This document shows, piece by piece, positions 28,102 to 62,107 of a stretch of 64,000 nucleotides of DNA. The notes under the pieces are model-generated. The model was not told where the DNA came from. It made no database searches and saw only the letters and a list, made by a program, of their open reading frames with translations. How positions within the stretch are numbered: position 1 is the first letter of the stretch; each line of letters starts with the position of its first letter. The position numbers and the translations under genes were made by a program. The DNA is from Burkholderiales bacterium. Lineage in GTDB: Bacteria; Pseudomonadota; Gammaproteobacteria; Burkholderiales; SG8-39. The DNA is taken from assembly GCA_050248795.1 (NCBI GenBank), contig JBFWRS010000003.1, positions 6,500 to 70,499 of the forward strand, in the 5' to 3' direction.

Positions 28102-28125
28102 CCGGGCCGCGACGCGGCCCGGTTT
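28102..28125 (+). terminator. stem-loop terminator after the His-rich gene
   Basis: CCGGGCCGC-GAC-GCGGCCCGG perfect 9-bp stem followed by TTT. The short T tract merges into the FNR box. Confidence 0.5.
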
Positions 28126-28137
28126 GATCCCGGTCAA
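28124..28137. promoter_or_regulatory. FNR/Anr box (ccoI promoter)
   Basis: TTGATcccgGTCAA, 33 bp from the ccoI ATG. TAGCAT hexamer begins 21 bp after the box. Confidence 0.7.
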
Positions 28138-31292: not shown

Positions 31293-31354
31293 ATCCGCCG
31301 CCCGGCGCTTGCCTAGCATTGCGGTGCGGCACGTACCGCGCACGGGGAAGGCAT

Positions 31355-42660: not shown

Positions 42661-44372
<1,712 letters not shown>

Positions 44373-48427: not shown

Positions 48428-48441
48428 TTGACCGGCGTCAA
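48428..48441. promoter_or_regulatory. FNR/Anr box (small ORF / Lon-like operon promoter)
   Basis: TTGACcggcGTCAA inside the palindrome GCGGGTTTGAC-CGGC-GTCAAACGCGC. CAGGAT hexamer 21 bp downstream. 33 bp from the ATG at 48475. Confidence 0.65.
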
Positions 48442-48474: not shown

Positions 48475-48792
48475 ATGCTGACATTCGAGGACTGCATCGC
48501 CCTGTGCGGCCTGAGCGAGGACGAGGTGCGCGCGATTGCCGAGCACGAGCACATACCGGAGCTCGCCGCCGCCGAGTACGGCAATTACCTCGCCAGCACG
48601 CCCGAGGGCGAACAATGCATCCGCGCGATGATCCGCGACGACATCGCGAACGCCGCGGCATCCGGCAACCTCGAGCGGCAGCTCGCGCTGAAGCTGGTGC
48701 TGCGCAATTTCATCCTGCAGCACCCGCGCTGCGAACAGCGCCACCGCGACGAGCTTCACCTGCCTGAGCGCCGCCTGGCGGGCAGGAGCTGA
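48475..48792 (+). CDS. hypothetical helical protein (105 aa) preceding the Lon-like protease
   Basis: ATG at 48475. Its stop lies 1 nt before the Lon-like ATG. No recognisable family. Four Cys. Confidence 0.5.
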   Translation: MLTFEDCIALCGLSEDEVRAIAEHEHIPELAAAEYGNYLASTPEGEQCIRAMIRDDIANAAASGNLERQLALKLVLRNFILQHPRCEQRHRDELHLPERRLAGRS

Positions 48793-48793
48793 C

Positions 48794-51247
48794 ATGCAGG
48801 CCGCCTCGCCCGCGCCGCTCGCGGCGGCGCAGCTGTGCCGCCGCTGCGACCCCGAGCGGCTGGGATTCGGCACCACCGACGAGCTCACCGACCTCGCCGA
48901 CCCGCCGGGCCAGGCGCGCGCCGAGGGCGCGATCCGCTTTGCGGTGGACATGGTGCACGAGGGCTACAACCTGTTCGTCATGGGGCCGGAGGGCTTCGGC
49001 CGCCGCAGCATGATCCGCCGCATCCTCGAGCGCCGCGAGCCGCCGCGCGCGGATGCGCTGTCCGACTGGTGCTACGTGTTCAATTTCGCGCAGCCGCACC
49101 AGCCGCGCGCGCTGCGGCTTCCCGCCGGCCGCGCGGCGAAGCTGCGCGACGGCATGGCGCGACTGGTCGAGGACCTGGGCGCGGCGATTCCGTCGGCGTT
49201 CGAGACCGACGAGTACCGCACGCGCCAGAAGGAAATCGAGCGCGTGTTCGAGCAGCGCCAGGAAGAAGCGCTCGGCGCGGTGGGCGATCATGCGCGCAAG
49301 GACGGCATCGCGCTCTTGCGCACGCCTTCCGGCTTCGGCTTTGCGCCGCTGCACGAAGACGCCGTGATGGAGCCGGATGCGTTCCGCAAGCTGCCGCAGG
49401 CCGAGCAGGAACGCCTGCAGCATCGCATCGCCGAGCTGCAGGAGGAGCTCGAGGCGGTTATCCACGAGATGCCGAAGTGGCGCCGCGAGGCGCAGCGCCA
49501 GTTGCGCGAGCTGAACCGCCAGGTCGCCAGCGCGGCGGTGAACGGCCTGATCGAGGAGCTCGAGTCCGCTTGGCGCGACCTGCCGGCGGTGAGCGCGTAC
49601 CTGGGCGAGGTGCGCGAGGACGTGCTCGAACACGCGGAATACTTCCGCCAGTCGAAGGACGGCGAGCGCCCGACGCTGTTTGGCATGCCGTTGCCGATGC
49701 CCGAGGGCGGCGATGCGCCGCTGCGCCGCTATGTCGTCAACGTGCTGGTGGAGAACGCCGACGCGCAGGCCGTGCCCATCGTCACCGAGGAAAACCCCAC
49801 GCACGACAACCTGCTCGGGCGCATCGAGCACATCGCGCAGATGGGCACGCTGGTAACGGACTTTTCGCTCATCAAGGCGGGCGCGCTGCATCGCGCCAAC
49901 GGCGGCTACCTGGTGCTGGACGCGGTGAAGGTGCTGTCGCAGCCCTTCGCCTGGGAGGCGCTCAAGCGCGCGCTGCGCTCGCGCGAGATCCGCACCGAGT
50001 CGCTGGGGCGCGCGCTCAGCCTGGTGAGTACCGTGTCGCTGCTGCCCGAGCCGATCCCGCTCGCGCTCAAGGTGGTGCTGGTGGGGCCGCGCATGATCTA
50101 TTACCTGCTGCACGCCTACGACCCGGAGTTCGCGGAACTGTTCAAGGTGGCGGCCGACTTCGAGGATGACTTCGAGCGCAGCGTCGAGGCCGACCGGCTC
50201 TACGCGCGCCTGGTGGCGACGATCGCGCGGCGCGAGAAGCTGCGCGCGCTCGATGCCGGCGCGGTGGCGCGCGTGATCGAGCACGCGGCGCGCACCGCCG
50301 GTGCGGCGGAAAAGCTGTCGGCGAACCTGGCGCGGCTTGCCGACCTGCTGCGCGAATCGGACCACTGGGCCGCCGCCGGCGGCAGGACGGTCACCGGCGC
50401 CGCGGACGTGCAGCGCGCCATCGACGCGCAGGACGAGCGCGCCGGTCGCGTGCGCGACCGCATGCACGAGGCGATCTTCAAGGGCACGCTGCTGATCGAC
50501 ACGCGCGGCGAGCGCGTCGGGCAGGTGAACGGCCTCGCCGTCACCGAGCTCGGCGGCCGCGCCTTCGGCATCCCGCACCGCATCACGGCGCGCGTGCGCC
50601 TGGGCAGCGGCAGGGTGATGGACATCGAGCGCGAAGCCGAGCTCGGCGGGCCGATCCATTCCAAGGGCGTGCTGATCCTCTCAGGCTTCCTCGCCTCCCG
50701 CTACGCGGCGAAGCTGCCGCTCGCGCTGTCGGCCAGCCTGGTATTCGAGCAGAGCTACGGCGGCGTCGAGGGAGACAGCGCGTCCTCGGCGGAACTGTGC
50801 GCGCTGCTATCGGCGCTCGCCGAGGCACCGCTGCGCCAGTCGCTCGCCATCACCGGCTCGGTGAACCAGCATGGCGACGTGCAGGCGATCGGCGGCGTCA
50901 ACGAGAAGATCGAGGGCTTCTTCGATGTCTGCCGCGCGCGCGGGCTGGCGGCGGGGCAGGGCGTGATCATCCCGGCCGCCAACGTGCAGCACCTGATGCT
51001 GCGCGCGGACGTGGTGCAGGCGGTGGCGGAAGGCCGCTTCGCGATCTATCCGGTCGGCTCGATCGACGAAGCTGCGGCGCTGCTGAGCGGCATGCCCGCG
51101 GGCGAGCGCGATGCGCTGGGCGCATTCCCGCCCGGATCGCTGAACGGCCGGGTCGAACAGCGCCTCACCGATTTCGCGGCACAGGCGCGCGGCGCCGCGC
51201 CAGGACGCGAGCGCAGGCGCGATGCGCGCACGGGGCGGCGGCGATGA
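48794..51247 (+). CDS. Lon-like protease with degenerate AAA module (LonC/COG1067-like)
   Basis: C-terminal Lon S16 domain with GDSASSAE (Ser) and GGVNEKIEG (Lys). N-terminal P-loop-like VMGPEGFGRRS with Arg where the Walker A Lys is expected. Long helical insertion. Confidence 0.85.
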   Translation: MQAASPAPLAAAQLCRRCDPERLGFGTTDELTDLADPPGQARAEGAIRFAVDMVHEGYNLFVMGPEGFGRRSMIRRILERREPPRADALSDWCYVFNFAQPHQPRALRLPAGRAAKLRDGMARLVEDLGAAIPSAFETDEYRTRQKEIERVFEQRQEEALGAVGDHARKDGIALLRTPSGFGFAPLHEDAVMEPDAFRKLPQAEQERLQHRIAELQEELEAVIHEMPKWRREAQRQLRELNRQVASAAVNGLIEELESAWRDLPAVSAYLGEVREDVLEHAEYFRQSKDGERPTLFGMPLPMPEGGDAPLRRYVVNVLVENADAQAVPIVTEENPTHDNLLGRIEHIAQMGTLVTDFSLIKAGALHRANGGYLVLDAVKVLSQPFAWEALKRALRSREIRTESLGRALSLVSTVSLLPEPIPLALKVVLVGPRMIYYLLHAYDPEFAELFKVAADFEDDFERSVEADRLYARLVATIARREKLRALDAGAVARVIEHAARTAGAAEKLSANLARLADLLRESDHWAAAGGRTVTGAADVQRAIDAQDERAGRVRDRMHEAIFKGTLLIDTRGERVGQVNGLAVTELGGRAFGIPHRITARVRLGSGRVMDIEREAELGGPIHSKGVLILSGFLASRYAAKLPLALSASLVFEQSYGGVEGDSASSAELCALLSALAEAPLRQSLAITGSVNQHGDVQAIGGVNEKIEGFFDVCRARGLAAGQGVIIPAANVQHLMLRADVVQAVAEGRFAIYPVGSIDEAAALLSGMPAGERDALGAFPPGSLNGRVEQRLTDFAAQARGAAPGRERRRDARTGRRR

Positions 51248-51906
51248 ACGCGCGGCGCATCGTGCTCGGGCTCGAGGCCGGCATGTCGGCACGCGAACTC
51301 GAGGCAACCGCACAACTGGCGCAGCGCGTCGATGCCGAGCTGCTCGGCCTGTTCGTCGAGGATGCGGACCTGCTGCGCTTCGCCGAATTGCCTTTCGCGC
51401 TGGAGATCGGGCACGCGTCCGCGCAGCGGCGCAGGCCCGATGCGGCCGCGCTGCAGCGCGAGATGCGCGCGCTGGCGGCCGAGGCCGAGCGCGCGCTCGC
51501 CGGCATCGCCGCGCGCGTGCCGGTGCGCTGGTCGTTTCGCGTCACGCGTGGCTACGCCGCCACGGAGCTGCTCGCCGCGGCCGCCGAGGCGGTGGGCGCG
51601 GATCTGCGCCTGCTGCTGCTGGGCGACGGCGATTCGCCGGTGACGCGATGGGCGGAGGCAGCCTGCGCGCGGCTCGCCGGCACCAGCGCGGCACCCAGGC
51701 TGGAACTGGTGCGCGCGGCGGACGTCGATGAACTGGCCGCCGCGCTGCAGGCGGCTGCGCCGGGCGTCGTCGTGCTGCGCGCCGAAGCGTCGTTGCTGTC
51801 GCAGCGCGGCTTGCCGGACCTGCTGCAACGCAGTGCCGCGTCGGTTCTGGTGCTGCCGACGCGCCCTGCAGTGCCGCGGCCGCGCGCGGCGTCAGCGCGC
51901 CACTAG
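51244..51906 (+). CDS. hypothetical protein (220 aa), translationally coupled to the Lon-like gene
   Basis: ATGA overlap with the Lon-like stop. Ala/Leu/Arg-rich with alternating strand/helix pattern. No motif recognised. Confidence 0.45.
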
Positions 51907-53519
51907 TACGGCGATTCCGGCGGCTGCGCTGCGGCGCGCTCCGGCAGGCGCGCAATCATGACGTCTGTGGTGAGCGCAAGGCCGGCGATCGACGCGGCGT
52001 TCTGCAGGCCGGCGCGCGTCACCTTGCACGGGTCAAGGACCCCCATCTCCACCAGGTCGCCGTACTCGCCGGTGGCGGCGTTGTAGCCGAAGTCTCCCTT
52101 TGCCTCGACCACGCGATTGACGACCACCGAGGGTTCGTCGCCAGCGTTGCGCGCGAGCTGGCGCAGCGGGTCCTCGAGCGCGCGCAGCACGATGCGGATG
52201 CCGGCATCCTGGTCGGCGTTGCCGCCGTGCAGGCCCTTCTGCAGGCGCGCGCGGGCGCGCAGCAGCCCGAGGCCGCCGCCCGGCAGCACGCCTTCCTCGA
52301 CCGCGGCGCGCGTCGCGTGCAGCGCGTCCTCGGTGCGCGCCTTGCGCTCCTTCATCTCGGTTTCGGTCGCGGCGCCGACCTTGATCAACGCCACCCCGCC
52401 TGCGAGCTTGGCGGCGCGTTCCTGCAGTTTCTCGCGGTCGTAGTCGCTGCCGGCGTCGTCGATCTGCCGCCGGATCGCGGCGACGCGCGCGTCGATGGCC
52501 GCGGGATCGCCGCCGCCGCCGATCAGCGTGGTGTCGTCCTTGTCGATCTCGACGCGCCTGGCGCGCCCGAGGTCCTCGAGCGACGCCTTCTCCAGCGACC
52601 TGCCTGCTTCCACCGAGATCACCCTGGCGCCGGTGAGCACCGCGAGGTCCTCCAGCATCGCCTTCCTGCGGTCGCCGAACCCGGGCGCCTTGACGGCGCA
52701 GGCCCTGATCACGCTGCGCAGCGAGTTGACCACCAGCGTGGCGAGCGCCTCGCCCTCGACCTCCTCGGCGATGACCAGCAGCGGCTTGCCGAGCTTGGCG
52801 ATGCCCTCCAGCAGCGGCAGCATGTCGCGGATCGCCGATATCTTGCTGTCGCACAGCAGCACCTGCACGTCCTCGAGCACCACGCGCTGCTTTTCCGCGT
52901 CGTTGATGAAGTACGGCGAAAGGTAGCCGCGGTCGAACTGCGTGCCCTCGACGACTTCGAGCTCGCTCTTCAGTCCCTTGCCGTCCTCGACGGTGATGAC
53001 GCCTTCCTTGCCCACGCGTTGCATTGCCTCGGCGACCATGTCGCCGATCGCGGCGTCGTTGTTGGCCGAGATCGTCGCCACCTGGGCGATCTCGGTGCGC
53101 GTCGAGCAGGGCCGCGCGGTGCGCTTCAACTCCTCGACGATCGCGGCGACAGCGAGGTCGATGCCGCGCTTCAGGTCCATCGGGTTCATGCCGGCGGCGA
53201 CGTACTTCATGCCCTCGGCGACGATGCCGGCGGCGAGCAGCGTCGCCGTGGTGGTGCCGTCGCCGGCGATTTCGGAGGTCTTCGAGGCCACCTCGCGCGC
53301 CATCTGCGCGCCCATGTTCTCGAACGGATCCTCGAGCTCGACTTCCTTCGCCACGACGACGCCGGAATTGATGATCTGCGGCGCACCGAAGCTGCGCTCC
53401 AGCACCACGGTGCGCGCCTTCGGTCCCAGCGTCACGCGCACTGCATCCGCCAGGATGCCGATGCCGCGCAGGATCTTCGCGCGGACCTGGTCGCCGAACA
53501 GGATACGCTTTGCACTCAT
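51903..53519 (-). CDS. groEL: orphan GroEL/Cpn60 paralogue (no groES, no GGM tail)
   Basis: [20 protein letters not shown]..., [15 protein letters not shown] motif. 538 aa ending ...AAQPPESPY. Confidence 0.9.
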
Positions 53520-53552
53520 GCCGTCATTTTTTCCCAATGCAGCCGTGGCCCT

Positions 53553-53566
53553 TTGACGCAGATCAA
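53553..53566. promoter_or_regulatory. FNR/Anr box centred between divergent groEL paralogue and kinase-like gene
   Basis: TTGACgcagATCAA, exactly 33 bp from each start codon (53519 and 53600). AAAAAT (minus) and GAGCAT (plus) hexamers lie 21 bp from the box. Confidence 0.7.
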
Positions 53567-53599
53567 GCCGGCAGCCGGCTCGCCGCGGAGCATCGTGCC

Positions 53600-55141
53600 G
53601 TGGAACCGCTCGTTGCCGCATTGCAGGACCCGGCCTGCTACCCCCATCCGGTCGCCGGCGTGCAGCTCATCGAGACGCACATCTCCTGGGTGCTGCTGGC
53701 GGGCGACTACGCCTACAAGATCAAGAAGCCGGTGCGATTCGCCTTCCTCGATTTCTCGACGCTCGAGGCGCGCAGGCGCTACTGCGAGGAGGAACTGCGC
53801 CTGAACCGCCGCACCGCAGCCAGCTACTACCTCGACGTGGTGGGCATCACGCAGGGTGACGCCGGCGTTCGGATTGCTGCCGCGGGCCAGCCGGTGGAGT
53901 ACGCGGTACGCATGCGCAGGTTCCCGCCAGGCGCGCTGGCCGAGGACGCGGCCAGGCGCGGTGCGCTAGACGCCGCCGGCATCGACGCGATCGCGGCGGC
54001 GGTGGCGGCGTTCCATGCCGAGACGCCGCGCGCCGGGTCGGGCGATGCCTGGGGCGAGCCGCGGGACATCGCCGCGCAGGCGCTCGCCAACTTCGACGAC
54101 ATCGCCGCGCTCGCGCCGTCGCCGGGCGGCGCAGATGCCGCGCGGCTGGCGTTCCTGCGCGACTGGACGCGGCGCGCGTGCGCCGAGCTGGCGCCAGCGT
54201 TCGATGCGCGGCGCGCCGGCGGCTTCGTGCGCGAATGCCACGGCGACCTGCACCTTGGCAACATCGCCTTCGTCGACGGCGGCGCGATGCCCTTCGACTG
54301 CATCGAGTTCGACCCGGGCTTGCGCTGGATCGACGTCGTCAGCGAGATCGCGTTCCTCTTCATGGACCTGCTCGCGCACCGGCTGCACGCGCTGGCATGG
54401 CGCCTGCTGAACGCCTGGCTGCAGGAAAGCGGCGACTACGCGGGCGTCCGGCTGCTGCGCTTTTACGCCGTGTACCGCGCCATGGTGCGCGCCAAGGTGG
54501 CGCGGCTGTCGGGCGCGCTCGACGCGGCCTCCGGCTATATCGCGCTGGCCGACGCGCTCGCCCGCGTCGAGCCGCACGGCCTGGTGCTGATGCATGGCGT
54601 GTCGGGCGCTGGCAAGACGGTGGCGTCGCAGGCGCTGCTCGAGCACCTGGGTGCGGTGCGCCTGCGTTCGGACGTCGAGCGCAAACGCCTCGCGGGCCTG
54701 GCGGCGCAGGCGCGCGCGGCCGCGCCGCCGGGCGCGGGCATCTACGATGACCGTTCGACCGAGCGCACCTACGAGCGGCTGGCGGTGCTTGCCGCCGGGA
54801 TCCTCGAATCAGGCTGGCCGGCAGTGGTGGACGCGGCGTTCCTTCAGCGCGCGCAGCGAGACGCGCTGCGGGGCGTGGCGCAGCGGCTGCGCCTGCCCTG
54901 CGCGATCGCCGCGTGCGAGGCGCCGGAAGCGGATCTGCGCCGCCGCATCGCGGCGCGCGAAGCCGCGGCGCAGGATGCATCCGACGCCGGCATCGCGGTG
55001 CTGGAGCGCCAGCTCGCGGACCGCGAGCCGCTGGGGGAAGACGAGCAGCGCATGGCGGTGCGCATCGACACGCAGGACGGGAATGCGTTGCGCCAGGGCC
55101 TGGAAGAGATCGCGCTGCGGCTGGCGCAGCCGGGCGGCTGA
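53600..55141 (+). CDS. bifunctional aminoglycoside-phosphotransferase-like kinase / P-loop ATP-binding protein (Rv2004c-like)
   Basis: APH/kinase motifs [11 protein letters not shown] and CIEFD. C-terminal Walker [12 protein letters not shown] at 53600 preferred; the track start at 53510 would span the FNR box and overlap groEL. Confidence 0.75.
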
Positions 55142-56168: not shown

Positions 56169-56182
56169 TTGACCGGGATCAA
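56169..56182. promoter_or_regulatory. FNR/Anr box between divergent gpsA and FGGY kinase
   Basis: TTGACcgggATCAA, 33 bp from the gpsA ATG (56135) and 30 bp from the FGGY ATG (56213). CATGAT hexamer 21 bp away on the gpsA side. Confidence 0.7.
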
Positions 56183-58692: not shown

Positions 58693-59532
58693 ATGAACTA
58701 CAAGACCATCGTCGTACACATGGACCGCAGCGCGCGCCGTGCGCAACGCCTGGACATCGCGCTCGACATGGCGCGGACGCACGACGCGCACCTGGTGGGC
58801 CTGTTCGCGCTCAGCACGCCGCGGATCCCGTCCTACGCGCTCGCCGAGGCCGGCAGTACGGTGCTCGAGCAACTGCGGCTGCGGCAGGCCGAGCAGGCCG
58901 CGGAGGCGGAAGCCGAATTCCGCAAGGCGGCGGCGCGGCACGGCGTCAGCACCGTCGAGTGGCGCGTGTCGCGCCAGGACGCGGTGGGCGCGGCGTGCCT
59001 CAGCGCACGCTACGCGGACCTGCTGATCGCCGGGCAACCGGAGCCGGCGGATGCGATGCCGGCGGGCATTGCGGCGGGTTTTCACGAAGAACTCCTGCTG
59101 TCCACCGGCGGGCCGGTGCTGTTCGTGCCCTATGCCGGGCGCTTCGAGCGTGTCGGCCAGCGCGTGCTGGTCGCCTGGGACGCGGGCCGCGAAGCGGCGC
59201 GCGCGGTGTCGGACGCGCTGCCGCTGCTGGCGCGCGCGGCACATGTGGAGGTCGTGGTGTTCGATCCGGAGAAAAGCCTCGCGCACGGCGACGTGCCGGG
59301 CGCGGACATTTCGCTTTACCTGGCCCGCCACGGCGTCAAGGCCTCTGCGGCGCAGCTCTCCGGCGCCGGCATGGATGTGGGCAACCAGATCCTGTCGCGC
59401 GCAGCCGACCTGGGATCGGACCTGATCGTCATGGGCGGTTACGGCCATTCGCGCATGCGCGAGCTGATGCTCGGTGGGGCGACGCGCACGGTGCTGGAGA
59501 CGATGACCGTCCCGGTGCTGATGTCTCACTGA
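58693..59532 (+). CDS. tandem-domain universal stress protein
   Basis: Two USP halves (IVVHMDRS..., VLVAWDAG...) and C-terminal MGGYGHSRMRELMLGGAT. GGAGAAAG RBS. Confidence 0.85.
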   Translation: MNYKTIVVHMDRSARRAQRLDIALDMARTHDAHLVGLFALSTPRIPSYALAEAGSTVLEQLRLRQAEQAAEAEAEFRKAAARHGVSTVEWRVSRQDAVGAACLSARYADLLIAGQPEPADAMPAGIAAGFHEELLLSTGGPVLFVPYAGRFERVGQRVLVAWDAGREAARAVSDALPLLARAAHVEVVVFDPEKSLAHGDVPGADISLYLARHGVKASAAQLSGAGMDVGNQILSRAADLGSDLIVMGGYGHSRMRELMLGGATRTVLETMTVPVLMSH

Positions 59533-60770
59533 AGCAGCAGTTCCACCGCCCACGCGGCGGCGATGCCGGCGGCCAGGCCGACCGCGACCCGCCAGCCAAA
59601 GCGCACGCCGCCGGTGGCGAATGCGCCGACCGTCTTGCTCACGGCATTGGTGGAGATCGCCAGCAGGCAGGAGAATGCCAGCACATCCGCCGGGAGCCGG
59701 CCGTCGGCGGCAAGCGCGAGCAGCGAAGCGCCGGCGGAATGCGCATCGAGTATTCCGGCCACCGCGGCGCCCACCTGCGCCGCCGCATTGCCGGCAAACT
59801 GGTTCGCCAGACCCACCGCGGTGCTCAGCGCCGCCACGCCCACCGCGAATCCGCTGGCGTGCCAGAGGTTGAAGGCGCGGCCCGGGCGATTCTCCGGCGG
59901 CTTCGCGCCGGCGCTGCTGCGGTAGAACCAGGCGGCGCACAAGACGGTGGCGACGAGGCCGGCGGCGAGCGGCGCCGCAAGCACCGCGAGCGCGGGCGCA
60001 TGGATGCTCGCGGTGATCACCGCGAACAGGATGAAGGTCGCCATGGTGGCGAACAACGAGCCGGCGACGCTCGCCTCCAGCAGCGCAGGTTCCTTGCGCA
60101 CGCGCGCGCCGAGCGCAATGATGGTCGCGGTGCTGGAGACGAAGCCCGACGCCAGGCCCGACAGCGCCATGCCGCGCTGGGTGCCCAGCCAGCGCTGCGC
60201 GATGTAGCCGGCACCCTGCATCGCCATGATGACCACCGCGTAGGTCCACACCACGTGCGGGTTGGTGCCGCCCAGCCAGGCGATCGCTTCGTCGGGCGTC
60301 AGCGGCAGCATGATCAGCACCGCGCCCGCGAACAGCAGCGCGTCGCGCATCTCCCGCTCGGTCAGCACCTGCGTGGAAAAACGGTGCAGCCGGCTGCGCG
60401 CGGCGAGCAGACCGGCAACCACCACCGCGCCGGCGGCGGCGACACCGGGCTGCGGGATGGCGACGACGCCGAGCAGGTAGGTGACGAAGAAGGCGAGCTC
60501 GGTGGTGACCCCGGGGTCGCTCTCACGGCTGCGCAGGTAGGCGATGGCGCTCAACGCAAGGATCATCACCGCGCCCGCGGCGACCAGCAGCGGTTGCTCC
60601 AGTGCCTGCGCGATCGCGCCCGCCAGCGCGGCAAGCGTGAAAGTGCGCACGCCGGCGAGCGCGCGATCGGGGCCGGCGCCCTTGCGCCGTTCCCGCTCGA
60701 CGCCGATCAGCAGCCCGCTGCCCAGGGCGACGAGGAACCCGAGCAGCAGGTTCTCAGGGAGCGCAAGCAT
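59526..60770 (-). CDS. MgtC/SapB-family membrane protein with DUF4010-like C-terminal extension
   Basis: N-terminal LLIGVERERRKG MgtC motif. About 12 hydrophobic segments. Confidence 0.7.
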   Translation of the reverse strand: MLALPENLLLGFLVALGSGLLIGVERERRKGAGPDRALAGVRTFTLAALAGAIAQALEQPLLVAAGAVMILALSAIAYLRSRESDPGVTTELAFFVTYLLGVVAIPQPGVAAAGAVVVAGLLAARSRLHRFSTQVLTEREMRDALLFAGAVLIMLPLTPDEAIAWLGGTNPHVVWTYAVVIMAMQGAGYIAQRWLGTQRGMALSGLASGFVSSTATIIALGARVRKEPALLEASVAGSLFATMATFILFAVITASIHAPALAVLAAPLAAGLVATVLCAAWFYRSSAGAKPPENRPGRAFNLWHASGFAVGVAALSTAVGLANQFAGNAAAQVGAAVAGILDAHSAGASLLALAADGRLPADVLAFSCLLAISTNAVSKTVGAFATGGVRFGWRVAVGLAAGIAAAWAVELLLQ

Positions 60771-60809
60771 GCAGGATCTTACCCGCAGCTTGCGCGCGGG
60801 CGGGGAGCG

Positions 60810-61553
60810 CTAGTGGCTCAGTTCCAGCACGCGCTCGAGCCGGGAGATGTCGGCGATGCGCACGTGCTTCTGCTGCACTTCGATCAGGCCGTCCTTCTGG
60901 AACGCCGAGAACAGCCGGCTCACCGTCTCCAGCTTCAGCCCCAGGTAGCTGCCGATTTCCTCGCGCGTCATGCGCAGGTGGAAGTCGGACTGCGAATAGC
61001 CGCGGCGCACGAAGCGCTTCGAGAGGTTGATGAGGAAGGTGGCCAGGCGCTGCTCGGCCCGCATCGACCCCAGCAGCATCATCACGCCGTGGTCGCGCAC
61101 GATCTCGCGCGCCAGCACTGCGTGCAGGTTGCGCTGCAGCGCGGGTATCTCGCGCGCCATCTGCTCGATCAGCGCATAGGGCAGCACGCAGACTTCGCTG
61201 TCCTCCAGCGCGATCGCCGTGCCGTTGTAGGTCCCGGTGCCGATGCCGTCCATGCCGAGCAGCTCGCCGCCCATGAAGAAGCCGGTGACCTGCTCGCGCC
61301 CTTCGCCGTCGATGAGGATGGTCTTGAAGAAGCCGCTGCGGATCGAGTACACGGCGTTGAACGCCGCGCCGGCATTGAACAGCACGTCGCCGCGCTTCAT
61401 GCGGCGGCGCGCGTAGACCACGTTTTCCATTCGCGCCATGTCCTCGGCGCCCATCGACGCCGGCAGGCACAGTTCGCGCAGGTTGCAGCTGGAGCAGGTA
61501 ACCTCGAACTTCCTCGGGGCGGCTTCCTGCCTGATCGCGGTAACGGCGTACAT
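60810..61553 (-). CDS. fnr: FNR/Anr-family oxygen-sensing transcription regulator
   Basis: N-terminal CSSCNLRELC (C-x2-C-x5-C) plus central Cys (EVCVLPY), cNMP-like barrel and HTH with the ETVSR recognition motif. AAGGAG RBS before the ATG at 61553. Confidence 0.9.
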   Translation of the reverse strand: MYAVTAIRQEAAPRKFEVTCSSCNLRELCLPASMGAEDMARMENVVYARRRMKRGDVLFNAGAAFNAVYSIRSGFFKTILIDGEGREQVTGFFMGGELLGMDGIGTGTYNGTAIALEDSEVCVLPYALIEQMAREIPALQRNLHAVLAREIVRDHGVMMLLGSMRAEQRLATFLINLSKRFVRRGYSQSDFHLRMTREEIGSYLGLKLETVSRLFSAFQKDGLIEVQQKHVRIADISRLERVLELSH

Positions 61554-61564
61554 GACGTACTCCT

Positions 61565-61969
61565 TCAGTGTCTGGCTGCGGCGCGCGCGGCGATCACTTC
61601 GCCGATGCGCTCGAACTCGGTGCTCTTGTCGAAGAAACTGCCTGCGCCCAGCCGCCGCGCGATGCGCCGGTAAGGCTCGGACGAGGAGTTGGAGAGCATG
61701 CACAGCTCGATGTCGGGTGCGGCGTCGTGTATCGCCTGCAGCACCTCGAAACCGCTGCCCTCGTCGAGCATGAAATCGACGATGACCAGGTCGGGGTGCG
61801 CGGCGAGGATGGCGCGGATCGCCTGCTGCGCGCCGCTGGCGTGTCCCACGGCGCGCGCGCCGGCGAGCGTCACCAGGCCTTCCAGGCGCTCGCGCACCAG
61901 AGGAGAATCCTCGACGAAGAAAACGCGTACCGGGGCTGCGACGGGCGGGGTGGCGGTGGCGCACTGCAT
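61565..61969 (-). CDS. single-domain (receiver-only) response regulator
   Basis: VFFVEDS, phospho-acceptor-like IVDFML and conserved FDKS Lys. No output domain. Its stop lies 11 bp upstream of the fnr start codon. Confidence 0.8.
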   Translation of the reverse strand: MQCATATPPVAAPVRVFFVEDSPLVRERLEGLVTLAGARAVGHASGAQQAIRAILAAHPDLVIVDFMLDEGSGFEVLQAIHDAAPDIELCMLSNSSSEPYRRIARRLGAGSFFDKSTEFERIGEVIAARAAARH

Positions 61970-62027
61970 GGACGCAGTGTGGCGCCGCCGGCCGCCGCGG
62001 CCTATCGGCGGATGCCGATTCCGCGCC

Positions 62028-62041
62028 TCGGAATATTCCGA
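62028..62041. repeat. perfect 14-bp palindrome TCGGAATATTCCGA at the GC-content break
   Basis: Read directly. An extra ATTCCG half-site lies 10 bp to the left. About 60-70 bp upstream of the response-regulator start. Confidence 0.4.
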
Positions 62042-62107
62042 AAGTATGTAGTTAGCGAAAGGCGCTACTAAGTGCCCTCGCTAAGACGGGGCTTCCCCAT
62101 CCTGCTG

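Follow-up and report, generated by a model that had tools for sequence, protein, structure and literature searches.

A single FNR-type box between divergent start codons of an orphan groEL paralogue and a kinase-like gene in a Burkholderiales genome: a candidate two-way class II promoter with leaderless transcripts

The 64,000-nt window analyzed here (contig JBFWRS010000003.1 of the Burkholderiales bacterium assembly GCA_050248795.1) contains a divergent gene pair, an orphan GroEL paralogue on the minus strand and a kinase-like gene on the plus strand, whose start codons are separated by an 80-bp spacer. In the middle of this spacer lies a single box of the FNR/Anr type, and we suggest that one FNR dimer bound there could serve two back-to-back class II promoters whose mRNAs begin at, or almost at, their start codons. 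All coordinates are positions of this window, and those of the features discussed are collected in Table 1.

The box, TTGACGCAGATCAA, reads TTGAC-GCAG-ATCAA. It matches the FNR consensus TTGAT-N4-ATCAA at nine of ten positions, and its half-sites TTGA and TCAA are both exact. To its left, the 33 nt of 53520–53552 lead to the ATG of the GroEL paralogue (53519–53517, minus strand); to its right, the 33 nt of 53567–53599 lead to the GTG of the kinase-like gene (53600–53602, plus strand). The box centre, at 53559.5, is thus 40.5 nt from the first base of either start codon. Each arm has an nAnnAT hexamer resembling a −10 element, the final T of which is 7 nt ahead of the first base of the start codon in both arms. 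An earlier note on this DNA had claimed the box, the two 33-nt distances and correctly placed hexamers in both directions, and direct reading verifies each coordinate as well as the register of the hexamers. Within 20 nt upstream of the start codon there is no Shine-Dalgarno-like motif in the GroEL arm, and the kinase arm has GGAG. No independent sigma-70 −35/−10 pair was found in 53300–53800, spacer included, which is expected if the promoters are activator dependent.

Table 1. Positions of the genes, boxes and promoter-like elements discussed in the text
Feature	Position	Strand	Remarks
Orphan GroEL paralogue, 538 aa	51903–53519	−	ATG is the predicted +1
−10-like hexamer of the GroEL arm, AAAAAT	53531–53526	−	Offsets 21–26 past the box
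FNR/Anr-type box, TTGACGCAGATCAA	53553–53566		Sole such box in the 80-bp spacer
GGAG	53587–53590	+	9 nt before the kinase GTG (−13 to −10), overlaps hexamer GAGCAT
−10-like hexamer of the kinase arm, GAGCAT	53588–53593	+	Offsets 21–26 past the box
Kinase-like / P-loop (AAA_33) protein, 513 aa	53600–55141	+	GTG is the predicted +1
fnr, 247 aa	60810–61553	−	Same island, 7 kb from the box
Sister box	28124–28137		Plus-strand ATG at 33 nt, 828-aa ORF, hexamer TAGCAT
Sister box	48428–48441		Plus-strand ATG at 33 nt, 105-aa ORF heading the Lon-like operon, hexamer CAGGAT
Sister box	56169–56182		gpsA-like gene (325 aa, minus strand), ATG at 33 nt, hexamer CATGAT

Both start codons are correct. The product of the GroEL paralogue is a full-length chaperonin (Pfam Cpn60_TCP1), and position 1 of the NCBIfam GroEL profile aligns to residue 1 of the 538-aa product, which identifies ATG 53519 as the true start. 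A longer open reading frame (ORF) of 572 aa was rejected as an open-frame artefact, since the profile begins at residue 1 of the shorter product. The gene is without a groES gene, and its C-terminus ends in AAQPPESPY in place of GGM repeats. The housekeeping groES–groEL pair is found on contig C18 (groEL at C18:36049–37629); its GroEL has the GGM tail and is 69% identical to the paralogue. A second public assembly of a near-identical genome has the same 538-aa and 513-aa gene calls and the same 80-bp spacer.

The kinase-like protein has a C-terminal AAA_33 P-loop domain, and for its N-terminal ~320 residues (window 53600–54580) neither Pfam nor NCBIfam gave a match at the thresholds used. The earlier note had named a kinase start codon elsewhere as grounds for giving up its proposal, and here GTG 53600 is upheld by alignments, by the second assembly and by synonymous codon changes. 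In the alignments, the N-terminus and the starts in other genera differ by one codon at most: the gene of family genome G013 likewise begins with GTG-GAA-CC, the ATG of genomes G017 and G016 lies one codon earlier, and that of G040 and G030 is at the same codon. The position of the N-terminus is also typical of 80 distant loci of kinase homologues, which are at most 56% identical, so that promoters cannot be compared at that distance. In two diverged strains, the changes just past 53600 are L4V and three synonymous third-position changes in codons 5–7. These codons are therefore translated, which speaks against a start at TTG 53621; this TTG was rejected also because the codon aligned to it is CTG in G013 and G017. 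An in-frame ATG at 53537 was likewise rejected: its position is upstream of the box, G013 does not share it, and the gene call of the other assembly does not begin there.

The box is far from alone. The motif TTGA-N6-TCAA occurs eight times in the window, compared with 0.19 expected from shuffles, and 51 times in the 3.79-Mb genome, giving 102 box arms. For each box we measured, on either side, the gap to all start codons of coding-like ORFs, defined as ORFs of 60 aa or more with high third-position GC. Genome-wide, ten start codons are found at gap 33, where the background is 1.53 per position (P = 5e-6), and gaps 33 and 34 together hold 10 + 5 = 15 starts (P = 9e-7), 14 of which are ATG. The nAnnAT hexamer follows the same register: it is present at offset 21 in 14 of the 102 arms, 12-fold above the mean of 1.1 at other offsets. 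A chance palindrome that happens to lie midway between two starts, with no regulatory role, is accordingly a very improbable account of the site; the number of boxes in the window and the gap-33 peak speak against it, as do the register of the hexamers and, described below, the conservation of the site in strains and its recurrence across genera.

A start codon at gap 32–35 is found in 18 of the 102 arms, so that the leaderless-type share of box arms in this genome is about one in six. Fifteen of these 18 are without GGAG, GAGG or AGGA in the 20 nt upstream and three have one of these motifs, while GTG is the start codon in two, one of them the kinase arm. In the window, a start codon lies exactly 33 nt from a box in five arms, namely at boxes 28124 and 48428, on both sides of 53553 and on the gpsA side of 56169. 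Box genes of the window with starts 62–64 nt off carry a Shine-Dalgarno-like motif; these are the genes for HSP20 (aaggaggcgatATG), for a 475-aa ORF at 31354 and for a 571-aa ORF at 42661. The site studied here is one case of a general module consisting of a box, 21 nt, a −10 hexamer, 6–7 nt and a start codon. If arms are combined independently, ~1.6 two-sided boxes are expected per genome from the ~18 of 102 arms, and two-sidedness is not enriched; the exact symmetry thus needs nothing more than two arms under the same rule. The 33/33 symmetry that the earlier note emphasized is, in other words, true to the base as a pair of distances, but as a symmetry it simply results from two arms that keep the 33-nt distance independently of each other, and it is not itself selected.

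The rule extends beyond this genome. In 31 genomes of the family, TTGAY-N4-RTCAA followed by N33–34 and ATG occurs 171 times, compared with 52 times for N29–30 and 75 times for N37–38. The largest excesses (N29–30 and N37–38 in brackets) are 20 (0, 4) in G009, 14 (1, 7) in G003, 13 (1, 3) in G013 and 13 (3, 0) in G000. In G009, two boxes are flanked on both sides by long coding-like ORFs that begin 33 and 34 nt away; one pair encodes enoyl-CoA-hydratase-like and hemerythrin-like proteins, the other a TctB-like protein and a universal stress protein. Symmetric candidates in G010, in G004 and on one side of G006 had no long ORF at the 33/34-nt ATG and were not counted. In G003 a second box-to-ATG peak is found at gap 25 (11 of 61 matches). 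This ATG is not a start codon; it consists of the terminal AT of the hexamer (offsets 25–26) and a following G, as in TAGCATG, and the peak is hence an independent mark of the hexamer register. From the share of about one box arm in six in this genome and the 171 matches in the family we propose, tentatively and as something a little short of probable, that much of the FNR-dependent low-oxygen regulon may have gone over to leaderless expression in this family of uncultured Burkholderiales.

Two diverged versions of the spacer could be recovered from metagenome contigs; DNA of the organism is present in landfill, sludge and compost metagenome runs. Variant A, from landfill runs X1 and X2, differs by 16 substitutions in the 80 bp, without any indel, and variant B (compost runs X10 and X11) has nine substitutions and a 1-nt deletion at 53521 that is offset by a 1-nt insertion after 53524. 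Across the two variants 20 of the 80 spacer positions are changed, none of them in TTGA/TCAA or in hexamer positions 2, 5 and 6 (P = 0.012). In the 20 nt made up of the box and the hexamers, one position is changed where five would be expected (P = 0.013). This sole hexamer change turns AAAAAT of the GroEL arm into AAGAAT in variant A, at the third position, and keeps nAnnAT; GAGCAT is identical in both variants. A and B alike retain the two start codons and the 33-nt distance on each side.

A candidate for the protein that reads the box is encoded in the same island. The fnr product has the N-terminal cysteine cluster C-x2-C-x5-C (CSSCNLRELC), a central cysteine and an ETVSR recognition helix of the E--SR type, the signature residues established for E. 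coli FNR. The genome encodes six members of the CRP/FNR family; the five others are at most 25% identical to the island FNR, and none of them has the FNR cysteine cluster. We consider the island FNR the likely reader of the box at 53553, judging from its sequence and location. An ORF at 60754–61470 had been considered as fnr and was rejected, being in the wrong frame. In the neighborhood of fnr (59526–62080), a gene for a receiver-only response regulator (Pfam Response_reg) comes before it and one for an MgtC/DUF4010 membrane protein after it, both on the same strand.

The closest known parallel is the lxa (low-oxygen-activated) locus of Burkholderia cenocepacia J2315, which has a 4-6-4 inverted repeat of the same type, TTGA-N6-TCAA (Sass 2013, PMC3721108). 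We counted the distances to the transcription start sites (TSSs) of the lxa genes from the differential RNA sequencing promoter sequences ending at +1 (Sass 2015, PMC4603805, Table S4). The TSS of BCAM0290 is 33 nt from its box, with a hexamer CAGACT at offsets 21–26, and that of BCAM0292 is 32 nt away (PMC4603805). BCAM0294 (minus strand) and BCAM0295 (plus strand) have a single box in common, TTGACTCAGATCAA, with TSSs at 33 and 34 nt (PMC4603805), and BCAM0294, a universal stress protein, is induced 167-fold at low oxygen (PMC3721108; PMC4603805). The measured TSSs at 32–34 nt place the box centre at −39.5 to −41.5. The +1 positions predicted here at 33 nt thus coincide with ones measured in a cultured bacterium of the same order, and one box with two divergent starts has been directly observed in lxa. 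The likeness includes the box type, the position of the hexamer at 21–26, the TSS at 32–34 nt and an island with HSP20, stress proteins and a protease. The differences are that the lxa genes have leaders, whereas in the window the start codons lie on the predicted +1 and the intergenic region is down to 80 bp, and that the gene pair includes a universal stress protein there but an orphan GroEL and a kinase-like protein here.

Other bidirectional sites are known as well. In Dinoroseobacter shibae, Fnr/Dnr sites located between the genes of the nirS–nosR2 and hemA3–dnrE pairs consist of a single palindrome 39.5/41.5 nt from divergent TSSs (Ebert 2017, PMC5398030), and reporter fusions are active both ways (PMC5398030). 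That organism differs in being an alphaproteobacterium, the genes concern denitrification, and leaderless transcripts are not mentioned in PMC5398030. Divergent activation from a single target has also been obtained with synthetic CRP promoters, according to the citation of El-Robh and Busby (2002) in PMC3105977; those promoters were engineered, whereas the ones in the window are natural. As in class II FNR and CRP promoters of E. coli, where the activator site near −41.5 overlaps the −35 region, there is no −35 hexamer here; the differences are that the box centre is at −40.5 relative to the start codon and that the transcripts are predicted to be leaderless. Leaderless mRNAs are known from lambda cI and are widespread in Actinobacteria and Deinococcus. 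The arms described here resemble them in having a −10 element directly upstream of the start codon and, in 15 of the 18 arms, no Shine-Dalgarno-like motif, but differ in that the predicted leaderlessness in this genome is tied to the regulon of one activator (~18 of 102 box arms). In B. cenocepacia, the one cultured relative for which a TSS map exists, leaderless transcripts are a small minority of that map (114 transcripts including 24 tRNAs), and 72 TSSs lie on start codons (PMC4603805). Full-text literature searches on the pairing of leaderless genes with FNR-type activation listed no paper connecting the two.

Taken together, we think it fairly probable that a single FNR dimer on the box at 53553 activates a back-to-back pair of class II promoters, and that the mRNAs are leaderless or nearly so. 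The quality of the box, the fnr gene in the island, the lack of a sigma-70 pair, the geometry of lxa, the recurrence of the module and the conservation in strains all support this proposal, which was the core of the earlier note. Upon oxygen limitation, the [4Fe-4S] FNR dimer from the same island would bind the single box, and each of its subunits would be the promoter-proximal one for one of the two class II promoters, standing in for the −35 element. RNA polymerase would then take the −10-like hexamer at 21–26 nt and start 33 nt from the box, so that +1 would be the A of the ATG for the GroEL paralogue and, on the opposite strand, the G of the GTG for the kinase-like gene. As starts at this distance coincide with the start codons, both mRNAs would be leaderless or have a leader of at most 1–2 nt, and their translation would make no use of a Shine-Dalgarno sequence. 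What we infer from these data is the binding of FNR at the box and its oxygen dependence there, the exact TSSs and leaderless translation, the last with most reserve for an mRNA with a 5′ GUG.

Several points weigh against this proposal, most of them on the kinase side. On the evidence of its letters, the GroEL arm is clean, with an ATG, no Shine-Dalgarno sequence and an AT-rich hexamer, and the kinase arm is less certain: it combines a GTG start, a GGAG at Shine-Dalgarno distance and a weaker hexamer, GAGCAT, and the earlier note's reservation about GTG and GGAG was a fair one. As a leaderless start, GUG works poorly in E. coli, though it is functional in mycobacteria. It could therefore be that only the GroEL arm is a leaderless class II promoter, while the kinase is leadered, using the GGAG from an upstream start, or is weakly expressed, its 33 nt being incidental. 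The number of two-sided boxes expected from chance pairing of arms is compatible with this alternative, and in G017, where the GroEL paralogue, one box and the kinase are kept in divergent order, the gaps are 61 nt on the GroEL side, with a G-rich Shine-Dalgarno-like run before the ATG, and 43 nt on the kinase side. Leaderlessness of the GroEL–kinase pair is thus not conserved. The GGAG, however, could serve as a Shine-Dalgarno sequence only if transcription starts farther upstream, and the spacer holds no other promoter; an upstream start would fall inside the box or the groEL coding sequence. GAGCAT and the 33-nt gap are moreover unchanged in the two strain variants, although ten distinct other positions of the kinase arm have changed.

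Relatives of the kinase gene bear on the same question. Even in a genome of the same genus the homologue is only 54% identical, which makes a fine alignment of promoters across genera impossible. Among 14 informative family relatives, five others have a box upstream of the kinase gene. In G013 (L082 1415–1503) the kinase GTG is 36 nt from the box, beside a different neighbor, a phosphoribosyltransferase-like gene whose ATG is at exactly 33 nt on the other side; three more genera have a box 68–128 nt upstream of the kinase. By this comparison the predicted membership of the kinase in the box regulon is widespread, and its predicted leaderlessness is variable. On balance we regard a leaderless GroEL arm beside a leadered or weakly expressed kinase arm as unlikely, and we favor two FNR-dependent promoters.

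Further points against that proposal are more general. The lxa genes, which have the same promoter geometry, carry leaders of 21–114 nt (PMC3721108; PMC4603805), and the distance of 40.5 nt from centre to start is one base below the canonical 41.5. Public RNA runs and four metatranscriptomes yielded only conserved groEL fragments of other organisms and nothing over the spacer, and an RNA search for the near-complete relative G006 found nothing usable. Finally, one of the five CRP/FNR paralogues (C7:48861–49418) also has an E--SR helix, without the cysteine cluster. The architecture could hence be right while the box is read by another member of the family, such as a Dnr/NnrR-like nitric-oxide sensor, instead of or besides FNR. 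With six family members in the genome and the C7 paralogue adjoining two boxes, this is conceivable, and in D. shibae Dnr and Fnr share such sites (PMC5398030). Still, the cysteine cluster is found in the island protein only, this protein is encoded in an island with eight boxes, and the island, with HSP20, an orphan GroEL and a Lon-like protease, is similar in content to the lxa locus, which is controlled by oxygen. We therefore hold a reader other than FNR to be improbable, somewhat more so than a kinase arm that does not follow the rule. The C7 paralogue itself, possibly Dnr/NnrR-like, lies near boxes C7:44935 and C7:45710, each of which has an ATG at 33–34 nt.

Some observations on the surroundings may be added. 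The box at 48428 leads an operon (48475–51906) of a 105-aa ORF, a LonC/LonB-like protease (817 aa) and a 220-aa ORF; the two small ORFs gave no family match. The operon lies directly downstream of the GroEL paralogue and is convergent with it. At box 56169, the FGGY kinase gene divergent from gpsA offers two ATGs, 30 and 39 nt from the box, and lacks a clear hexamer; in the other assembly this kinase is called as 484 aa, from the 39-nt ATG. Orthologues of the GroEL paralogue that are 73–75% identical, and thus closer than the housekeeping copy, occur at four loci (L002, L003, L014 and L021) in distant metagenome-assembled genomes labelled as Burkholderiales or Gammaproteobacteria, where they share a strand with the kinase-like gene and lie 0.4–1.9 kb upstream of it. 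This proximity in distant lineages suggests a functional link between the two proteins.

Bidirectional FNR or CRP promoters with a single site, the 33-nt distance from box to TSS, hypoxia islands of the lxa type and leaderless mRNAs are all known. What appears to be new is the predicted coincidence of start codons with the +1 of FNR class II promoters throughout a regulon, and the two-gene units of 80–82 bp; we have not found this combination described. The finding extends known rules and breaks none. If both transcripts start on their start codons, 80 bp would be near the smallest DNA that can hold the complete expression signals of two regulated genes, with one activator site, two −10 elements, no leaders and no ribosome-binding sites, and one-box units of 80–82 bp would represent the smallest possible two-gene regulatory module. 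The spacer is also a compact candidate for a bidirectional hypoxia-inducible promoter part. For the organism, our proposal would mean that a global oxygen regulon is tied to leaderless translation in a proteobacterium, and that oxygen limitation switches on promoters whose mRNAs bypass Shine-Dalgarno-dependent initiation. Proteins for stress and dormancy might in this way be translated preferentially while normal initiation is limited, and the predicted co-regulation of the orphan GroEL and the kinase-like protein, which stay close to each other in distant lineages, hints at a common role of the two in low-oxygen survival.

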